From positions 1-64,000 of IMG/VR virus record IMGVR_UViG_2799113015_000003: 64,000 nt of DNA; one strand, 5' to 3'. Below the pieces are notes generated by a model, which made no database searches, had not been told where the DNA came from, and worked only from the letters and a program-made list of their open reading frames with translations. Each line of letters opens with the position of its first letter. The stretch's first letter is position 1. This document shows, piece by piece, positions 10,023-17,843 of the stretch. The translations under genes and the position numbers were made by a program. This DNA comes from a virus. Taxonomy: Duplodnaviria > Heunggongvirae > Uroviricota > Caudoviricetes.

Positions 10023-10333
10023 ACCAACCCCAATGCCTTCATCTCGGCGTGCGCCTCTACCACCTCACGGTCGAACCGGTCGCGGGTGTACTCGCCGCCA
10101 AGGTGGGCGATGGTGTCCTCGACCATCCGAATCCACCATTCGGCCACGCCATCAAGGCCACCCATCGTGGCGGTTTCGCCCACAAGGATGAACCACGGGT
10201 GCGCGTTGGCTTCCAGGCACTCATCGCCATACGCCATAGAGATAGGTACACCAGGCACCGAACACACTCCGAGTGCGGGCTCCTTCCCGCAGACATCACA
10301 AATCAGTTCTGGCAGTGCAGGCTTCTCACTCAT
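10019..10333 (-). CDS. hypothetical Cys-containing protein, ~104 aa
   Basis: Start set at an internal ATG giving an ATGA overlap with the stop of the Pth2 gene. Confidence 0.4.
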   Translation of the reverse strand: MSEKPALPELICDVCGKEPALGVCSVPGVPISMAYGDECLEANAHPWFILVGETATMGGLDGVAEWWIRMVEDTIAHLGGEYTRDRFDREVVEAHAEMKALGLV

Positions 10334-10683
10334 AGCAGTTTCAGCTCCCCTGTAATCGGCGCGAGTTCGTCGGCGGTCGCTGGACCAATGGCACAACAGG
10401 TAGTTGTGAGCACGCCGTGGAACTCAGTCAATCCGTTGTCAGTAATCAATGAATTCGGGATTCCGGCCTTAATTGCCTTATCCCACAGCTCAATCAGCGC
10501 ATCCTCACTCTCGACACGCACACATACCTTGGTGAAACTCCCCTGCAGCCACTCTTCAACGCGCGGATCCGAGAGGTATTCGAGCGTCGCAGCCAGCGAT
10601 GCATGCGCGCCCTGTGCGACCATCTTGCCTGCACGCATACCAAGGTCTTTACGCATGACGATCATTTGCTTCAGCTCACTCAT
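10330..10683 (-). CDS. pth2: peptidyl-tRNA hydrolase, PTH2 family
   Basis: IVMRKDLGMRAGKMVAQGAHASLAA matches the conserved PTH2 core (e.g. human PTRH2 [21 protein letters not shown]). Confidence 0.7.
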   Translation of the reverse strand: MSELKQMIVMRKDLGMRAGKMVAQGAHASLAATLEYLSDPRVEEWLQGSFTKVCVRVESEDALIELWDKAIKAGIPNSLITDNGLTEFHGVLTTTCCAIGPATADELAPITGELKLL

Positions 10684-10756
10684 CGCCGTTCACCTCCCCC
10701 ATGATCTGAGCGCCGTCGTACACGGTCACCGGGTCGTAGTCGCATGCCGAATCGCG

Positions 10757-10767
10757 GTATCCCTTCC
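10757..10767 (-). promoter_or_regulatory. start-associated motif core on the minus strand (GGAAGGGATAC) upstream of the Pth2 gene
   Basis: Reverse complement GTATCCCTTCC on the top strand; followed on the minus strand by a 21-codon mini-ORF that ends at the Pth2 ATG. Confidence 0.35.
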
Positions 10768-10812
10768 CTGGGATTACCGGGTACTTCTCGAACCAGAACC
10801 CCTCACCGGGCA

Positions 10813-12051
10813 CTAGGTTCCCTTCACATTCAGCACCTGGCGAAGCTCCGTGACAACCTCAACCAGAGGGGCGGCGTCACTCATCACGACGTCGATTGGC
10901 TTGTAGCAGGAAGGGATCTCGTCAATCCATTCCTCGCCGTGGCGGTACTCGATGCCTTGCATCTGGTCGGCCAGGTCTTCAAGGGTGAAGAGTTCCTTCG
11001 CCTTGGTGCGAGAGAATCGCCTCCCGGCACCGTGCGGTGCAGAGAACAGGCCATCCTTGTTGCCCCGACCCCGGACCACATAGGAGCGTGTCCCCATCGA
11101 GCCGGGGATAAGTCCCAGCTTCCCCTCTGACGCATCGATAGCGCCCTTCCGGGTCAGCCATACCTTCCGCCCATCGATCTCAGTCTCAACCGTGTAGTTG
11201 TGGTGACAGTTCACGCGGTCGATCTCGACGCGCTGCGCCTGCACTCCAAGCCAATTCGCGAACACCTGGACGTAGCGGTCCATCATCTCGGCACGGTTCT
11301 CGTAGGCGAACTTTTGTGCCCACTGCAGATCCTTGATGTAGCGATCGAACTCAGCGGTCCCCTCAGTGAGGTAAGCAAGATCCCGATTCGGCAAACGAAA
11401 TTGAGGAGCGGCCTCGCCTGAGCACTTCTGTAGGTACTCATAGCGCGCAACGGCTACCTTAATGTGGCGCTGAGCGATCTTGTTGCCCACGCCCCTACTT
11501 CCCGAGTGCAGGAACAGCCACACAGTGTCTTCCAGGTCGACACACAGCTCGATGAAATGGTTACCGCCACCAAGTGAGCCCAACTGCTCCATCCACTTCG
11601 GGGAGTGAGACAGGTCTACATCCAGCTCGTTCTGAAGCCGGATCAGGCCCTCAATCCGATTACGTGTGAACGGGAACCGCTTAATGTCCGAGTTATAGTT
11701 GCCTGGCGACAACGGGATTGCACCCTCGATGGCCACGCGCAAATCGGGCAGGCGGGGCATATCAGCCAACAGGGCGTCATCCATGATGTTGGCCCACTCG
11801 TAGCGGGTCTTCACCGCGATCATGCCGCAGCCGATGTCCACGCCAACAGCCGCAGGAATCACAGCCCCCACGGTGGGGATGACCGTTCCAACAGCTGAAC
11901 CCTTGCCACTGTGCGCATCAGGCATCAGCGCCATGTGCGGGTAGATGAACGGCAGCGAGGCCGTCTCCTTAGCCTGATCGATCGTCGTGTAGTCGATCTC
12001 TGAGGCGAACGAGATGATGTTGTCACCAATGCGCTGGCTCAATTCCTTCAT
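10813..12051 (-). CDS. rtcB: RtcB-family RNA ligase (3'-phosphate/5'-hydroxyl RNA ligase)
   Basis: MPDAHSGKGSAVGTV, GVDIGCGM, GGGNHFIEL and SAPHGAGR are hallmark RtcB active-site motifs. Confidence 0.9.
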   Translation of the reverse strand: MKELSQRIGDNIISFASEIDYTTIDQAKETASLPFIYPHMALMPDAHSGKGSAVGTVIPTVGAVIPAAVGVDIGCGMIAVKTRYEWANIMDDALLADMPRLPDLRVAIEGAIPLSPGNYNSDIKRFPFTRNRIEGLIRLQNELDVDLSHSPKWMEQLGSLGGGNHFIELCVDLEDTVWLFLHSGSRGVGNKIAQRHIKVAVARYEYLQKCSGEAAPQFRLPNRDLAYLTEGTAEFDRYIKDLQWAQKFAYENRAEMMDRYVQVFANWLGVQAQRVEIDRVNCHHNYTVETEIDGRKVWLTRKGAIDASEGKLGLIPGSMGTRSYVVRGRGNKDGLFSAPHGAGRRFSRTKAKELFTLEDLADQMQGIEYRHGEEWIDEIPSCYKPIDVVMSDAAPLVEVVTELRQVLNVKGT

Positions 12052-12127
12052 ATACCAATGCTATTGAGCGATTACGGGTTCATGTGGGTACGAAAAAGCC
12101 CCCAGCTTTCGCTGAGGGCTCTTCGAG

Positions 12128-12198
12128 TAGTCCATGCGGGAATCAAACCCGCACCAACACCTTGAGAGGGTGGTGTGCTCTCACTACACCAATGGACC
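12128..12198 (-). tRNA. tRNA-Glu (anticodon CTC)
   Basis: T-arm GCGGG/AATCAAA/CCCGC (reverse complement); 7-bp acceptor with G1-U72; anticodon loop CTCTCAA. Confidence 0.7.
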
Positions 12199-12204
12199 TT
12201 AGGG

Positions 12205-12543
12205 CTATTGCTCAACCCACTTGCCGGATTCACGAACCTCTGTCTTGAGGTTAACCGGCCACATATCACGCTCCACTTGGGCACGTTGTAGGTCTTCGCG
12301 GCCCACCTGACGTTTCACCCATAGCTGGAACTTTGGTGAGCTCGCCATGCGCCTGAACGCGGCCTGCTTGTTCTGCAGCTGGCTACGCTCCTCGCGCGAC
12401 TCACCCACCGCGCCAGAAGGCTCATGCGTAATCCGCACGCCCGTCTCGCGCTTGTTCTGGTTTTGACCGCCTTTGCCCCCAGATCGGAATGTGTCCACAC
12501 GACAATCCGAGAGGGTGACAGACAGTACCCGTTCTCTACTCAC
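12205..12543 (-). CDS. ArfB-like peptidyl-tRNA hydrolase (class I release-factor GGQ domain protein)
   Basis: FRSGGKGGQNQNKRETGVRITHEPSG matches the RF-1/ArfB GGQ catalytic loop (E. coli ArfB [22 protein letters not shown]); ~110 aa with a basic C-terminal tail, as in ArfB. Confidence 0.65.
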   Translation of the reverse strand: MSRERVLSVTLSDCRVDTFRSGGKGGQNQNKRETGVRITHEPSGAVGESREERSQLQNKQAAFRRMASSPKFQLWVKRQVGREDLQRAQVERDMWPVNLKTEVRESGKWVEQ

Positions 12544-13215: not shown

Positions 13216-13287
13216 TAGGTTCGCACAGAATTGAACTGCGATTGCCGACGTATCAGGTCGGTGTCCTTACCATTGGACGACGAACCA
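13216..13287 (-). tRNA. tRNA-Ile (anticodon GAT)
   Basis: Acceptor 13217-23/13281-87 (6 of 7 pairs); anticodon arm CCGAC/GTATCAG/GTCGG. Confidence 0.65.
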
Positions 13288-13288
13288 G

Positions 13289-13360
13289 TGGGAGCACCAG
13301 GGGTCGAACCTGGGATTCATGGGTAAGAGCCAAGAGTTATAACCGCTTAACTATACTCCC
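13289..13360 (-). tRNA. tRNA-Lys (anticodon CTT)
   Basis: Perfect T-stem CCAGG/CCTGG; acceptor 13290-96/13354-60; anticodon loop CTCTTAC. Confidence 0.6.
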
Positions 13361-15214: not shown

Positions 15215-15290
15215 TATTGACGACGGGACTTGAACCCGCACATCCAGTTTCCAATAACTGGTGACCTACCGTTGGTCTACGCCATTCTCG
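15215..15290 (-). other. degenerate tRNA-like element
   Basis: Good T-arm ACGGG/ACTTGAA/CCCGC and an anticodon-like hairpin CCAGT/TTCCAATA/ACTGG with an 8-nt loop; no matching acceptor stem found. Confidence 0.25.
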
Positions 15291-15740
15291 CAGCGGAGAA
15301 TGATTTGACTAGAGACGTGCTTCCCCATGAAGTTCCGCACCCTTTTGGGGCACAGAATGCTTCACGCCTCTCGTGCTTTCGCCTGGCGGGGCTAATTACA
15401 CTCTCTCTCAACCGCATTGCGAGCCGTCGCCCGACGCGAGATCGATCATGGAACACGCCCTTGCTTGCGAGGCTCGGACTCAGTTCCTTCCGTTCCACAG
15501 GGCGCTTGTTCGATAGCCTTTTCACACGCACGTACGTGATGGTGTCCTCAGCACTTTGCCGTTGGACGGGGCGTAACTCGCAACCTGGCAGCCATCACTG
15601 ACTGCTCAAGGATTGGATTGCATGGATTGCCCTTGCGGGTGGTGGGTTGTCACCCCACCTTTCACCACCTTGCGGTGGCTTATGGGCCATGCCCCGAATG
15701 TCTTAACTATATCTCCCACAACAGAGTTCGTGTGGGTGAG

Positions 15741-15822
15741 CGGAGAGGCAGGTATTCGAAACCTACTGCGAACAGCGCTCCGGTTAGCAACCGGGCCTAG
15801 TCACCTAACTAGTTGCGCTCTC
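15741..15822 (-). tRNA. tRNA-Ser (anticodon GCT), class II
   Basis: T-arm CAGGT/ATTCGAA/ACCTA; anticodon loop TTGCTAA; ~13-nt variable arm; 82 nt. Confidence 0.55.
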
Positions 15823-15903: not shown

Positions 15904-15988
15904 AGGAAGGTAGAGGAATCGAACCCCCGAGTTTTCAGGCTCGCCCCGGTATTCGACGCCGGTTGCCGACCATTCAGCGGTGCCTTCC
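15904..15988 (-). tRNA. tRNA-Ser (anticodon CGA), class II
   Basis: T-arm AGAGG/AATCGAA/CCCCC with G-U pairs; long variable arm; anticodon loop GTCGAAT; 85 nt. Confidence 0.5.
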
Positions 15989-16299: not shown

Positions 16300-16302
16300 A
16301 TT

Positions 16303-16680
16303 TCACGATGCACGTTGTCGGCGCTTCGCGTTTCGGGCCCACAGGCGACACAGCCCGCATCGGCAGCCGTGTCGTTGGTACATTCTGCACGTGCCATGTC
16401 GGTAGGACTTGAAACCGATGGTGATCTCGGTTTGCGCGATAGTCTTCGCCTTGTGGCAGGCACGACACAGGGCTTGACACTTATCCAATTCTGCAATGCG
16501 TCTGCCTGCCGACCAGGACCAAATCGCGTTCGTAACCTTCACTGTTGGATCAATGTGATCCAGTTCAAGGTCACCCCCTGAACCGCAAGAGGCACATACC
16601 CTTCCGGCGAACCACTCGTCACGTCGACCTGCTCGCCACTCTCGTTGGTACCGGCGCTTCACTTCACCTGTAAGTGTCAT
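16303..16680 (-). CDS. HNH endonuclease (paralog 2) embedded in the tRNA array
   Basis: CASCGSGGDLELDHIDP...CRACH...YRHGTCRMYQRHGCRCGLCR aligns with the 13936..14337 product; the ORF is flanked tightly by tRNA-Tyr and tRNA-Asn. Confidence 0.75.
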   Translation of the reverse strand: MTLTGEVKRRYQREWRAGRRDEWFAGRVCASCGSGGDLELDHIDPTVKVTNAIWSWSAGRRIAELDKCQALCRACHKAKTIAQTEITIGFKSYRHGTCRMYQRHGCRCGLCRLWARNAKRRQRAS

Positions 16681-16684
16681 AACG

Positions 16685-16758: not shown

Positions 16759-16876
16759 GAGCGAGGGTGGCCAGTGTCAGCGCGCTTTCTGACCTGTGCG
16801 ACCCTCTTGCCCGTCCTGCTTAGAGATGAGACGGAGCCGAAAACACCCGTACGGTCATCATACGTGATGACCAACG

Positions 16877-16951
16877 TCTGCCAGGCGCGATTTGAACACG
16901 CGATCTCCTGGACCCAAACCAGGCGGGATGGCCAAACTTCCCTACAAGCAG
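16877..16951 (-). tRNA. tRNA-Pro (anticodon TGG)
   Basis: T-arm GCGCG/ATTTGAA/CACGC; perfect anticodon stem CCTGG/CCAGG with loop TTTGGGT (G37); perfect D-stem GGGA/TCCC. Confidence 0.6.
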
Positions 16952-17194
16952 ATGATGGACGACACGGCCCAGGTACGGCACCTCAGGTCAGATCCTTTTT
17001 ATCGGAACCTACTGCGGGATTACCCTGCCATCCATATGGCCACCGGCATCCCGATGGCCGCGCGGAGATGTCTCTCCACATTCCCCGTACGACCGACGCT
17101 TTCCTGGAGCTACCTGTACTTGCGCATGTGGTCTGACAGCCGGGGCCACACTGACTAACGAGGATGTTCTCCCTTTGCACTACCGGCAGCCTAC

Positions 17195-17260
17195 GCCGCC
17201 AGTCGGGGCTCGAACCCGAATCTTCCTCTCGTGGAGCTGCCCGGAATTGAACCGGGATGT
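17195..17260 (-). other. two adjacent perfect T-arm-like hairpins (tRNA-like fragment or structured ncRNA)
   Basis: TCGGG/GCTCGAA/CCCGA at 17203-19 and CCCGG/AATTGAA/CCGGG at 17240-56, with no resolvable acceptor or anticodon arms. Confidence 0.2.
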
Positions 17261-17642
17261 TACGTGACTTGTCACAGTCTTCTACGTGCGTAGTCCACCG
17301 ATTGGGTCGGTTGGGGTGGACGCCTGTCCGAATCGAGACCTCAGACTCTCGACCGATCTTCCAGCACAGTTTGTCGCCTGAGAGCTGGTCATTGCGAGTT
17401 CCCCGTATTCGCGACGGTGAATTGGTACACGGAACGGGTAAACCGTTGTACCCCACCGGACTACGCAGCTAGGGCGTAGTCGGACTGAGCAGAAGCTGCA
17501 GTTATTGTGGTTGCACTGTTACGGGCGTTGCGGACCCGGCACGCTTCTCAGTAAGTTGACACGCAATCGAATACCTGTCAGCCCCATTGAAGTATCTATA
17601 TCTCTATGGAGTTTTCAAATGTCATGCCACACAGAGGCATTG

Positions 17643-17713
17643 CACGGGCGGAGAGAATCGAACTCCCACTAACGGGTTTGGAATCCGTTGTCCTGCCTTT
17701 GGACCACGCCCAT
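17643..17713 (-). tRNA. tRNA-Trp (anticodon CCA)
   Basis: T-arm GAGAG/AATCGAA/CTCCC; acceptor 17644-50/17707-13; anticodon loop TTCCAAA. Confidence 0.65.
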
Positions 17714-17843
17714 ATCACCGGAATTTCCGGCTCCGGTAACCGGTGTGAACTAAGTCTACGACCCACCCACATGAACCTCTAGCGAATAAAAACGGGCCCC
17801 GATCCACTGAGGAACCGGGGCCCAACGCCGAGAAAGCCTGCGC

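Follow-up and report, generated by a model that had tools for sequence, protein, structure and literature searches.

Within the analysed window, a stretch of 64,000 nt, a gap of 690 bp separates the genes for tRNA-Pro(UGG) (16876-16951, minus strand; identified by ARAGORN and Rfam) and tRNA-Trp(CCA) (17642-17713, minus strand), and no tRNA is reported by ARAGORN between the two. The gap is fully occupied by RNA genes on the minus strand: a complete, ssrA-like tmRNA gene (17229-17585), of which tRNA-Trp is the upstream neighbour, and a conserved RNA of 280 nt (16952-17231), not annotated before, which lies directly 3' of the tmRNA and reaches tRNA-Pro. It is highly probable that the locus consists of a phage tmRNA and of a second RNA carrying a permuted tRNA-like module at its 5' end, both belonging to a single transcription unit, the tRNA array of a Mycobacterium abscessus prophage of cluster MabI; this judgement concerns the identities of the two genes and not the function of the second.

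An earlier note on this DNA had described two perfect T-arm-like hairpins lying 37 nt apart, and both were located: TCGGG/GCTCGAA/CCCGA at 17203-17219 and CCCGG/AATTGAA/CCGGG at 17240-17256 (plus-strand letters), their starts being separated by 37 nt. Read on the minus strand, both are T-arms, with loops TTCGAGC and TTCAATT. Perfect hairpins of the form N5-TTCRANN-N5' occur eight times in the window, always on the minus strand; six of them lie within annotated tRNAs, and the other two are those found in the gap. The two hairpins far exceed chance expectation: base-shuffled copies of the window contain on average 0.21 such hairpins, with a maximum of 2.

The second hairpin is the T-arm of the tmRNA (CCCGG-UUCAAUU-CCGGG, 17240-17256). 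It is directly followed, on the minus strand, by CAGCTCC-A (17239-17232), in which the earlier note had seen a resemblance to a tmRNA 3' end. This is truly the 3' end of the gene (17232-17256, minus strand), formed by the T-arm, the 3' strand of the acceptor stem (CAGCUCC, 17233-17239) and the discriminator A (17232). A 5' pairing partner and a tag frame had also been looked for and declared absent; both exist. The partner, located by ARAGORN and Rfam, is GGGGCUG (17579-17585, minus strand), read from the sequence in agreement with the Rfam alignment, and the two strands form a 7-bp acceptor stem. The Rfam tmRNA model RF00023 matches the gene with 80.5 bits (gathering score 47, E 1e-29, model positions 1-374); the whole tmRNA, including its pseudoknot-rich body, is thus matched by a curated covariance model above the gathering score. 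The extent assigned by ARAGORN is 17231-17585. The reduced D-loop (UUCGA) is present, near the 5' end, within GGUAUUCGAU. In the acceptor stem, G3 (17583) and U70 (17235) form the wobble pair known as an alanine identity element. CCA is not encoded: the trinucleotide after the discriminator is CGA in the window copy, CUA in prophi86-1 and CCA in Rey and Nanosmite. This feature does not disqualify the gene, because many bacterial tRNA and tmRNA genes depend on the CCA-adding enzyme.

Upstream of the gene, a weak promoter-like site, TTGAAA-16-GATACT (17591-17618, minus strand; a consensus match only), ends 6 nt before G1 of the tmRNA, within a spacer nearly invariant among MabI types. It fits poorly the mycobacterial -10 motif, TANNNT, and may be listed as a candidate promoter with low confidence; a dedicated tmRNA promoter was not retained, the match being a weak one of sigma-70 type.

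The tag frame extends from 17461 to 17499 on the minus strand (gene positions 87-125 according to ARAGORN). Its codons, GCA GCU UCU GCU CAG UCC GAC UAC GCC CUA GCU GCG UAG, encode AASAQSDYALAA*, a translation checked by hand. The frame opens with an alanine resume codon and no start codon, is terminated by a stop and produces a hydrophobic C-terminus ending in LAA. The M. tuberculosis ssrA tag is AADSHQRDYALAA (PMC4416901); the last six of the 12 residues of the phage tag (DYALAA) are identical to it, and 3 of the 12 differ. In relatives the frame is kept with substitutions, as in ANAHQSDYALAA and ANAHQSDYVLAA.

The tmRNA of the window is 98.3% identical to the one annotated in the M. abscessus prophage prophiT49-2 (cluster MabI), and the identical tmRNA annotation is found in prophiT49-2, prophi86-1 and prophiGD54-2. 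A tmRNA gene is also annotated in Rey, PegLeg, Aziz and Wildcat, homologues are found in mycobacteriophages of clusters M and V, and homologous tmRNAs were identified in 40 mycobacteriophage records. The order tRNA-Trp, tmRNA is conserved in MabI, in cluster M and in Wildcat. When bacterial SsrA (RF00023) and the tmRNAs of MabI and cluster M/V phages are compared with this gene, the full architecture is alike and nothing essential differs. The phage tmRNA itself is already known, and is ordinary for this phage group: the MabI array has been described as composed of 21 tRNAs, a tmRNA and a release factor (Dedrick et al. 2021, PMC8092301).

According to established tmRNA biology, the transcript would be cut from a precursor and given its CCA end, to be added post-transcriptionally since CGA is encoded in place of CCA. 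Alanine would then be attached to it by virtue of G3·U70, and with SmpB supplied by the host it would rescue stalled ribosomes, the rescued products carrying a host-type Clp degron; host factors are assumed here because no SmpB is annotated in the phage. Genes for RtcB, PTH2 and a small RF-1-domain protein adjoin the tRNA array, and the position of the tmRNA beside them assigns it to a translation rescue and repair toolkit.

The gap had been described as having no convincing coding sequence, and this holds. The opposite reading, in which a protein is encoded in the gap and the hairpins arise by coincidence, can point to an open frame of 157 codons (16983-17456, minus strand), and its probability is negligible. 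The frame overlaps the high-scoring tmRNA, its product has no Pfam match, and relatives do not preserve it: the longest ORF that spans the 3' end of the tmRNA measures 157, 137, 105, 96, 84, 49, 31 or 26 aa across relatives, whose alignment contains indels that are not multiples of three. No CDS is annotated at the gap in the three GenBank relatives prophiT49-2, prophi86-1 and prophiGD54-2. The 157-aa ORF, which overlaps both the tmRNA and the tRNA-like RNA, is therefore spurious; the gap is explained by the tmRNA, and the suspicious ORF should not be annotated.

A search of positions 16850-17750 against Rfam at E <= 10 returned tmRNA, tRNA, a weak YrlA match and weak tmRNA_permuted matches, in addition to sub-threshold matches to unrelated eukaryotic or viral families, which were treated as due to chance. 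Nothing was retrieved at this limit for group I introns, a remnant of which had been suggested for the region, nor for RNase P RNA, SRP RNA, 6S RNA or riboswitches, and likenesses to RNase P or SRP motifs noticed by eye are supported by no model. The more general proposal of the earlier note, a structured RNA to be given up if Rfam and ARAGORN had no match, is borne out, as both programs report the tmRNA and a covarying tRNA-like module is found next to it.

This circularly permuted, YrlA-type module (17153-17231, minus strand; all segments verified as exact substrings) corresponds to the first 79 nt of the 280-nt RNA and starts 3 nt after the tmRNA discriminator. It is composed, in order, of CGA, the 3' strand of a closing stem (17224-17228), a V loop, a T-arm (17203-17219), a capped acceptor-like hairpin (17183-17202), UA, a D-arm (17166-17180), A, the 5' strand of the closing stem (17160-17164) and the tail GUUAGUC. 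There is neither an anticodon loop nor a free CCA end. The T-arm of the module is the first of the two hairpins, for which the suggestion of "tRNA fragments" had come near the truth.

The fold was evaluated on two alignments. The first, A3, is a gapless alignment of 75 columns, in which a hand segmentation, made with the fold in mind, was verified in 11 phages. The 21 pairs of the cloverleaf are paired in 95.7% of the cells, and in 17 of them both partners have changed; covariation scores 0.823, compared with 0.295 for shuffled alignments (0 of 500 reach the observed value), and slid controls are paired at 35-51%. The second, A4, is a covariance-model alignment of 18 matches (17 distinct copies), and shows 96.9% pairing and a covariation of 0.852 versus 0.241, values to be read as those of an alignment fitted to the model. 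In A3 the tertiary Levitt 15-48 pair (columns 55 and 12) covaries as well, being A-U in 7 copies, G-C in 2, G-U in 1 and an unpaired G-G in 1. The T-loop UUCGA is invariant, and GG is found in the D-loop of 10 of the 11 copies; a single mismatch (G×A) occurs in the D-stem of the window copy. Under R1, a covariance model built from the phage modules, this copy scores 61.6 bits, and the best junction between neighbouring tRNAs of the window 18.5 bits. Single-sequence folding of the 280 nt is unexceptional (z = -1.18).

The rest of the RNA is a conserved structured 3' domain of 201 nt (16952-17152, minus strand) that ends 3 nt before tRNA-Pro. Its structure, taken from an RNAalifold consensus, includes a helix, CCCCG/CGGGG (within 17138-17147 and 17079-17089), the hairpins GUGGAGA-GACA-UCUCCGC (17062-17079) and GGCCAUCGG-GAUG-CCGGUGGCC (17038-17059), and a closing stem made by AUGGAUGGCA (17026-17035) and UGUCGUCCAU (16955-16964), all on the minus strand. 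Its 46 pairs are formed in 98.8% of the cells, and 8 of them covary, compared with 1.2 in shuffles, as counted on the same 9 sequences from which the structure was derived. Invariant sequence blocks alternate with variable segments. Exact copies of the conserved blocks were found, in viral, genome and metagenome collections, only in 6 MabI-type IMG/VR contigs; distant blastn of the domain against phages returned only 3 MabI records, and nhmmer no further relatives. A covariance model of the domain, R2, scores 168 bits on the window and 12.9 bits on the next best sequence. The domain is confined to MabI-type prophages, and has no detectable relative outside that cluster. A short hairpin, GGAGA-N-ACAUCUCC, is shared with cluster M, where it apparently falls in the 5' half of GOLLD; it was not taken as homology.

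A module of this type could in principle be an inert remnant of tandem tRNAs, formed by the 3' half of one copy and the 5' half of the next and kept by descent, the rest of the gap being spacer. A ready evolutionary route is offered by the junction between the Lys(CUU) and Ile tRNA genes, which have a 0-nt spacer: it can adopt the same permuted fold and reaches 32.7 bits under R1 in prophiT49-2 and 26.5 in Rey, which also indicates that mid-range R1 scores are not specific. The D-stem mismatch of the window copy, and the losses and degenerate copies reported below, would agree with decay. We nevertheless consider such a remnant unlikely. The strands of each helix are separate DNA stretches that would decay independently in the absence of selection, whereas the double changes at 17 of the 21 pairs leave 96-97% of the cells paired, and the 15-48 pair covaries too; the adjoining 3' domain, moreover, does not resemble a spacer, since some of its blocks are invariant and its helices covary.

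In every copy of the module that was found, the start lies 3-4 nt beyond the discriminator of the tmRNA or tRNA that precedes it. The preceding gene is the tmRNA in the case of MabI, cluster M and Wildcat; five cluster M phages carry the module behind tRNA-Asn, and L009 carries it behind tRNA-Val. In MrMagoo and Estes the module is absent after the homologous tmRNA, in Aziz only a T-arm-like hairpin is recognisable after the tmRNA, and the Wildcat copy is weak (30.3 bits under R1); the module is thus dispensable in some phages. Most tRNAs of the same arrays have none. A search of the literature found no published description of a tRNA mimic fused to the 3' end of a tmRNA or tRNA.

The constant position suggests a mainly cis-acting element, which, folded into a compact tRNA shape in the CCA slot, would direct or insulate the 3' maturation of the tmRNA or tRNA by RNase Z, RNase P and the CCA-adding enzyme and would have no later role. 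The arrangement has a parallel in mascRNA/MALAT1-type tRNA-like elements, which use tRNA processing enzymes: there too a fold shaped like a tRNA directly adjoins the 3' end of a different functional RNA, and in both cases RNase P and RNase Z probably act on it. The phage module differs in being permuted and in its bacterial and phage setting; because of the permutation, RNase P and RNase Z would cut inside its acceptor-like hairpin and not at the 3' end of the upstream tmRNA. MrMagoo and Estes, in addition, retain their tmRNA with no module behind it, most tRNAs of the arrays have none either, and maturation in cis leaves the conserved 201-nt domain unexplained. In favour of such a role, the YrlA of M. 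smegmatis is a substrate for RNase P cleavage and for CCA addition in vivo (2014, PMC4201824). On balance, a purely processing role is a possibility that we hold with considerable reserve.

The order of the two halves, the 3' half preceding the 5' half, is also that of true circularly permuted tRNA genes and of two-piece tmRNAs, and the ends could be thought to be joined, for example by the RtcB encoded in the array, into a functional adaptor. G3·U70 occurs in the acceptor-like stem of the copies L005 and L008, and Rfam reports weak tmRNA_permuted matches. In the permuted tRNA genes of Cyanidioschyzon merolae, as in the module, the 3' half comes first and a loop links the acceptor strands; what the module lacks are an anticodon loop, a bulge-helix-bulge motif and any sign of circularisation, and its product cannot decode. 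Joining the tail to the 5' trinucleotide gives no consistent 7-nt anticodon loop across copies, for which reason a permuted tRNA gene matured by RtcB was rejected, and in the window the tail continues into the 201-nt domain. RtcB joining is disfavoured also because the products of RNase Z and RNase P (5'-P, 3'-OH) are not RtcB substrates. With two-piece tmRNA (RF04321) the module shares the T-arm and acceptor 3' strand placed before the acceptor 5' strand, but the module contains a true D-arm of 4 bp, and G3·U70 lacks conservation. The matches are below threshold (14.5-27.9 bits, the cut-off being 47) and the variable segment has no conserved tag frame, for which reasons a second or two-piece tmRNA was rejected. 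A functional adaptor of either type is very improbable.

The closest resemblance is to the tRNA-like domain found in YrlA, a bacterial Y RNA. Module and YrlA present the same elements in the same order: a variable region, the T-arm, a loop-capped acceptor-like stem, the D-arm and a helix that replaces the anticodon arm. Conserved T-loop and D-loop nucleotides and a covarying 15-48 pair are found in both, an (U)AAAC tail is common to the module, the Rfam YrlA consensus and Bxz1, and both are co-encoded with RtcB. When applied to actinobacterial Ro60 loci, R1 produced 90 matches in 80 loci, all on the sense strand and upstream of the Ro60 ORF, and it recovers the YrlA site upstream of the Ro-like gene of Bxz1. 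The reverse comparison is weaker: the Rfam YrlA model (RF02553) matches the window at 17139-17243 with 15.8 bits, where the gathering score is 69. On the tRNA-like core of other phage copies it gives 24.9 bits for L005 and 30.9-43.6 bits for the cluster M copies located after tRNA-Asn, and the control, the Bxz1 YrlA locus beside the Ro-like gene, is also below the gathering score, with 32.5 bits.

These similarities would be compatible with a genuine Y RNA, orthologous to YrlA, that binds host Ro60/Rsr and tethers it to an exonuclease. The vicinity of RtcB recalls the rsr-yrlBA-rtcBA operon of Salmonella (PMC7790460), and M. smegmatis, a host of cluster M phages, possesses Rsr (PMC4201824); M. 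abscessus is not represented among the best 80 of 172 relatives in a Ro60 genome scan. Several features expected of such an RNA are, however, missing. The Ro-binding motif GNCGAAN0-1G, the presumed Ro60 contact near the 5' end of YrlA, has no conserved match in the 280 nt across six sequence types; the look-alikes GCCGAU and GGUCGUA lie in the variable segment, are not conserved across types and were discarded. The long terminal stem between 5' and 3' ends, made in Bxz1 YrlA by GGGGAGGCAG/CUGCCUCCCC, has no counterpart in the phage module: the window RNA has only the 5-bp closing stem, since only 3 nt separate its 5' end from the tmRNA, and its 3' side enters a separate domain. No Ro60 was found in the window by tblastn of Bxz1 gp220 (best E 2.2), and none is annotated in prophiT49-2. 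Together with the YrlA score far below the gathering value, this makes a Ro60-binding Y RNA rather improbable. The module also differs from YrlA in its location, 3-4 nt behind the 3' end of a tmRNA or tRNA, and, in MabI, in the cluster-specific 3' domain that follows. We are thus dealing with a Y-RNA-type tRNA-like domain accompanied by neither Ro60 nor a Ro-binding site, and its presence in tRNA arrays, abutting tRNA and tmRNA 3' ends and near RtcB, suggests a role in tRNA processing, repair or defence instead of one linked to Ro60.

Two cuts would release the 280-nt RNA: one of RNase Z type, at the discriminator of the tmRNA as part of 3' processing, and one by RNase P at the 5' end of tRNA-Pro, which would thereby define the 3' end of the RNA upstream. 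The product may then be a tRNA mimic that cannot be charged and cannot be cleaved in the anticodon loop, a suggestion made with low confidence. Equally low is our confidence that such a mimic would engage tRNA-binding enzymes, most plausibly as an anticodon-nuclease decoy or as a handle for co-encoded enzymes of tRNA repair and processing; these roles are suggested by the presence of the tRNA elbow and the absence of an anticodon loop and a CCA end. Extended to the Vilmaviridae mycobacteriophages (MabI prophages, clusters M and V), a tentative hypothesis is that they carry a family of Ro60-independent, YrlA-type tRNA mimics, located 3-4 nt behind tmRNA or tRNA genes and released by tRNA-processing enzymes, which would serve the tRNA-targeting nucleases of the host, or the co-encoded RtcB and PTH2, as handles or as decoys that cannot be cleaved. 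If this were true, the tRNA-like domain of bacterial Y RNAs, long unexplained, would gain a Ro60-independent function, and in MabI the mimic would carry an additional structured domain of 201 nt. The hypothesis is testable, since cluster M phages, which grow on M. smegmatis, lend themselves to genetic manipulation.

There is, in addition, a gain for annotation: tmRNAs can be added to the many cluster M GenBank records that lack them, and modules to all the records examined, none of which has this element annotated.

Both hairpins described in the earlier note (+ strand TCGGG/GCTCGAA/CCCGA at 17203-17219 and CCCGG/AATTGAA/CCGGG at 17240-17256) are present, with starts 37 nt apart. On the minus strand they have the form of canonical T-arms, whose loops are UUCGAGC and UUCAAUU. 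When perfect N5-TTCRANN-N5' hairpins were counted over the 64-kb window, 8 turned up, all on the minus strand, six of them inside annotated tRNAs and the remaining two being this pair; the mean for base-shuffled sequence is 0.21, and the pair is far from chance. The ARAGORN count for the window is 21 tRNA genes plus a single tmRNA, every one of them on the minus strand. The region is 98.3% identical to prophiT49-2 (Mycobacterium phage), 88.1% to prophi86-1 and 84.7% to prophiGD54-2, all of them prophages of M. abscessus, each about 80 kb long; prophiGD54-2 was assigned to cluster MabI by Dedrick et al. 2021 (PMC8092301).

The second hairpin is the T-arm of a tmRNA, located by ARAGORN at 17231-17585 (-), with tag AASAQSDYALAA*, and by Rfam (RF00023, model positions 1-374) at 17229-17585 (-), with 80.5 bits (E 1e-29) against a gathering score of 47. 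The earlier note had named silence of these two programs among its grounds for refutation; both call the gene. It had also reported neither a tag frame nor a 5' pairing partner, and both exist: the frame GCA GCU UCU GCU CAG UCC GAC UAC GCC CUA GCU GCG UAG lies at 17461-17499 (-), and GGGGCUG (17579-17585) pairs with CAGCUCC (17233-17239), G3·U70 wobble included. Its comparison of CAGCTCC-A to a tmRNA 3' end was correct, CAGCUCC being the 3' acceptor strand and the A at 17232 the discriminator. In prophiT49-2 and prophi86-1 the gene is annotated as tmRNA, with a tag identical to that of the window; the prophiGD54-2 tag is ANAHQSDYALAA, and two IMG/VR relatives carry ANAHQSDYVLAA. The ssrA tag of M. 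tuberculosis, AADSHQRDYALAA (PMC4416901), is equal in length to the phage tag, agrees with it at 9 of the 12 encoded positions and has the same C-terminal DYALAA. The tmRNA is thus real, functional-looking and already known, being annotated in close relatives; tmRNA genes in mycobacterial tRNA arrays were reported earlier by Morgado & Vicente 2018 (PMC5966550).

Distant blastn found homologous tmRNAs in 40 mycobacteriophage records, including cluster M (Bongo, PegLeg, Rey, Reindeer, Nanosmite, Aziz and others), Wildcat-type phages and Kumao; in many of these records the gene is not annotated. Clear homologues lack annotation in many cluster M GenBank records, such as MrMagoo, Nanosmite, Reindeer, SirSheldon and Estes, those other than Reindeer being seen by blastn only. 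Cluster M tmRNAs scanned with Rfam scored 84.9-100.8 bits, the unannotated Reindeer gene (95.8 bits) among them.

The 3' CCA of the tmRNA is not encoded in the window, the discriminator being followed by CGA; cleavage at the 3' end and addition of CCA would thus have to occur. Going by the standard biology of tmRNA and tRNAs, the array would be transcribed as a precursor, from which the tmRNA would be freed by RNase P together with an RNase Z-type cut, gain CCA and alanine and, once charged, tag stalled products with a host-like degron together with host SmpB. tRNA-Trp is immediately preceded by a strong terminator-like hairpin with a U-run (17793-17824, -), and a weak promoter-like site (17591-17618, -) stops 6 nt short of the tmRNA 5' end, in a spacer nearly invariant among MabI types; these two elements hint at a possible transcription start of its own for the tmRNA unit.

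From the tmRNA discriminator up to the tRNA-Pro 5' end stretches a 280-nt segment (16952-17231, -), annotated in none of the relatives. The same RNase Z-type cut, with RNase P at tRNA-Pro, would release it as an RNA, whose first helix begins 3 nt from the 5' end. When the window, three GenBank prophages and six IMG/VR contigs were aligned, six sequence types with 61-87% mutual identity were distinguished. Invariant blocks are set apart by variable segments and indels, a pattern which suggests an RNA rather than a protein.

The first 79 nt (17153-17231, -) form a module that contains the first hairpin. On the minus strand, CGA is followed by one side of the closing stem (GAGGA), the variable loop (AGAU) and the T-arm (UCGGG-UUCGAGC-CCCGA); then come CUGGCGG-CGUAGG-CUGCCGG, a loop-capped 7-bp acceptor-like stem, UA, the D-arm GUGC-AAAGGGA-GAAC, A, UCCUC, which pairs with GAGGA, and the tail GUUAGUC. 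All tRNA spacings are kept (acceptor and D stem 2 nt apart, a single nt at position 26, a variable loop of 4-5 nt), in a circularly permuted order, with the acceptor stem closed and the break at the anticodon-loop site. A permuted tRNA gene is a very unlikely reading of this order. Tentatively, the module might be an L-shaped tRNA mimic, neither chargeable nor cleavable in an anticodon loop, that could bind tRNA-recognising proteins, either as a decoy for anticodon nucleases, an idea raised for YrlA by Hughes et al. 2020 (PMC7790460), or as a handle for repair or processing enzymes.

Behind the tmRNA, this module recurs in each of the six MabI types and, within cluster M, in Nanosmite, Reindeer, Rey, PegLeg/SirSheldon and SlimJimmy. 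Its segmentation was checked as exact substrings at 11 loci, and variable loops were trimmed to give a gapless 75-column MAFFT alignment of the 11 modules, made by hand with the fold in mind and with gap-free helices. In this alignment 95.7% of the cells of the 21 named pairs are paired, compared with a shuffle mean of 68.0% (none of 500 shuffles as high), and pairing falls to 35-51% when partners are shifted by ±1-3 columns. Changes on both sides occur in 17 of the 21 pairs, and the covariation score is 0.823 versus 0.295 in shuffles. The Levitt pair (columns 55/12) also covaries, as A15-U48 in seven modules, G15-C48 in two, G-U in one and an unpaired G-G in one; this signature was used for YrlA by Chen et al. 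2014 (PMC4201824). The fold is well supported, the function is not.

A covariance model trained on the 11 modules gave 61.6 bits to the window copy and 18.5 bits to the best window junction between neighbouring tRNAs. Outside the training set, it found full-length copies immediately behind tRNA-Asn in five cluster M phages, at 34.6-44.5 bits (Reindeer, Aziz, Rey, MrMagoo and Estes), one after the Wildcat tmRNA (30.3 bits; L021 1865-1963) and one exactly between tRNA-Val and tRNA-Thr of a MabI contig (26.1 bits; L009 5111-5185), none of them annotated. The coordinates of the five post-tRNA-Asn copies are, by contig, L014 2187-2266, L017 2147-2228, L015 2248-2331, L012 2026-2107 and L019 2041-2122. 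In an alignment of 18 hits (17 distinct) produced with the model, 96.9% of cells are paired, with a covariation of 0.852 versus 0.241. Every copy starts 3-4 nt past the discriminator of the tmRNA or tRNA before it, the slot for CCA, a placement at which a pure cis-processing element is a rival to the tRNA mimic.

The tRNA-Lys(CUU)/tRNA-Ile junction of prophiT49-2, with a 0-nt spacer, reached 32.7 bits because its two halves happen to be complementary; mid-range scores of the model are therefore not specific. This junction, a source of false positives, occurs at L001 2375-2450 (-), L104 2224-2300 and window 13261-13318 (-). Tandem paralogous tRNAs are thereby suggested as a plausible evolutionary origin of modules, and an inert tandem-tRNA remnant is an unlikely alternative to a working mimic, against which the covariation of the module pairs speaks.

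The module is probably related to YrlA, whose tRNA-like domain it resembles. The Rfam YrlA model (RF02553, gathering score 69) gave 15.8 bits in the window, 24.9 in the phage copy L005 and 30.9-43.6 for the copies that follow tRNA-Asn in cluster M; the two highest-scoring local alignments match the tRNA-like core alone (model positions 23-85). In Bxz1, which encodes a Ro-like protein and served as positive control, our module model found a site about 190 nt upstream of the Ro-like gene (30.1 bits), which scored only 32.5 bits with Rfam YrlA; an RNA at the expected YrlA position by a phage Ro60 gene thus also falls under the Rfam cut-off. With the Bxz1 Ro protein as query, 80 actinobacterial Ro60 loci (the best 80 of 172 relatives, none of these 80 from M. 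abscessus) were collected, and the module model produced 90 hits in them (E < 0.01, 22.6-42.6 bits), all on the sense strand and upstream of the Ro60 ORF. A model built from post-tmRNA phage copies alone is therefore able to retrieve the tRNA-like domains of canonical YrlA. The phage modules also have the tail motif (U)UAAAC in common with Bxz1 and the Rfam YrlA consensus.

These likenesses would favour a true Ro60-binding Y RNA, an unlikely rival; unlike YrlA, however, the 280-nt RNA has neither the GNCGAAN0-1G motif nor the terminal 5'/3' stem of Y RNAs, and no Ro60 gene was found in the window (tblastn best E 2.2) or annotated in prophiT49-2. The module was therefore not filed as YrlA. Full-text searches for YrlA, permuted tRNA and Y RNA in phages found no description of a YrlA-type mimic behind tmRNA or tRNA genes in phages devoid of Ro60, nor of the MabI-specific 3' domain, and inspected GenBank annotations hold neither.

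The 3' domain (16952-17152, -) was folded by RNAalifold from nine sequences. The predicted consensus comprises a variable segment enclosed by a CCCCG/CGGGG helix, the hairpins GUGGAGA-GACA-UCUCCGC and GGCCAUCGG-GAUG-CCGGUGGCC, and a terminal multi-helix part, closed by AUGGAUGGCA/UGUCGUCCAU and ending 3 nt before tRNA-Pro. Counted on the same alignment that yielded the structure, 98.8% of the cells of its 46 pairs are paired (35-48% in slid controls), and 8 of the 46 pairs changed on both sides versus 1.2 in shuffles. Neither Rfam, distant blastn and nhmmer nor exact-block scans of three collections found relatives elsewhere; a covariance model of the domain gave 168 bits in the window and 12.9 for the next best hit. 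In cluster M phages the sequence at this position differs.

The 157-aa ORF (16983-17456, -), which overlaps the tmRNA and the 280-nt RNA, is spurious. It has no Pfam match, the longest ORF across the same point in relatives measures 137, 105, 96, 84, 49, 31 or 26 aa, and no CDS is annotated there in three GenBank relatives, in agreement with the earlier view that the gap holds no convincing CDS.

Further features were noted around the array. A translation rescue and repair cluster (10330-12543, -) adjoins it, composed of PTH2 peptidyl-tRNA hydrolase (10330-10683), RtcB RNA ligase (10813-12051) and a 112-aa RF-1-domain protein, possibly ArfB-like (12205-12543). Rfam hits below threshold in conserved cluster M sequence after the post-tmRNA module, to wcaG RNA (L015 1968-2047 and L014 1970-2046; 28.4 and 21.7 bits against 42) and sul1 RNA (L015 2117-2174; 27 against 36.2), may be due to chance. 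The tRNA-Asn/tRNA-Tyr spacer (16300-16683, -) measures 384 nt, while its prophiT49-2 counterpart has 111 nt; the additional DNA shares 71% identity with an HNH endonuclease gene of phage SlimJimmy, and is therefore probably a mobile HNH insertion.

Within the array lies a GOLLD RNA (RF02032, 14929-15372, -; 198.7 bits against a cut-off of 150), probably the ~430-nt structured RNA reported by Morgado & Vicente 2018. GOLLD also occurs in cluster M arrays (182-206 bits). An odd tRNA, with the 2-nt ARAGORN anticodon 'tg', is embedded in the GOLLD RNA of the window (15215-15286). In the 695-nt gap on the upstream side of GOLLD there are two further orphan T-arm-like hairpins (15748-15766 and 15912-15928, -) and a block, GGGGCAUGGCCCAUAAG...CAGGUUGCGAGUUACGCC (about 15570-15695, -), homologous to the cluster M stretch between the post-tRNA-Asn module and GOLLD; the block probably corresponds to the unmodelled 5' half of GOLLD.
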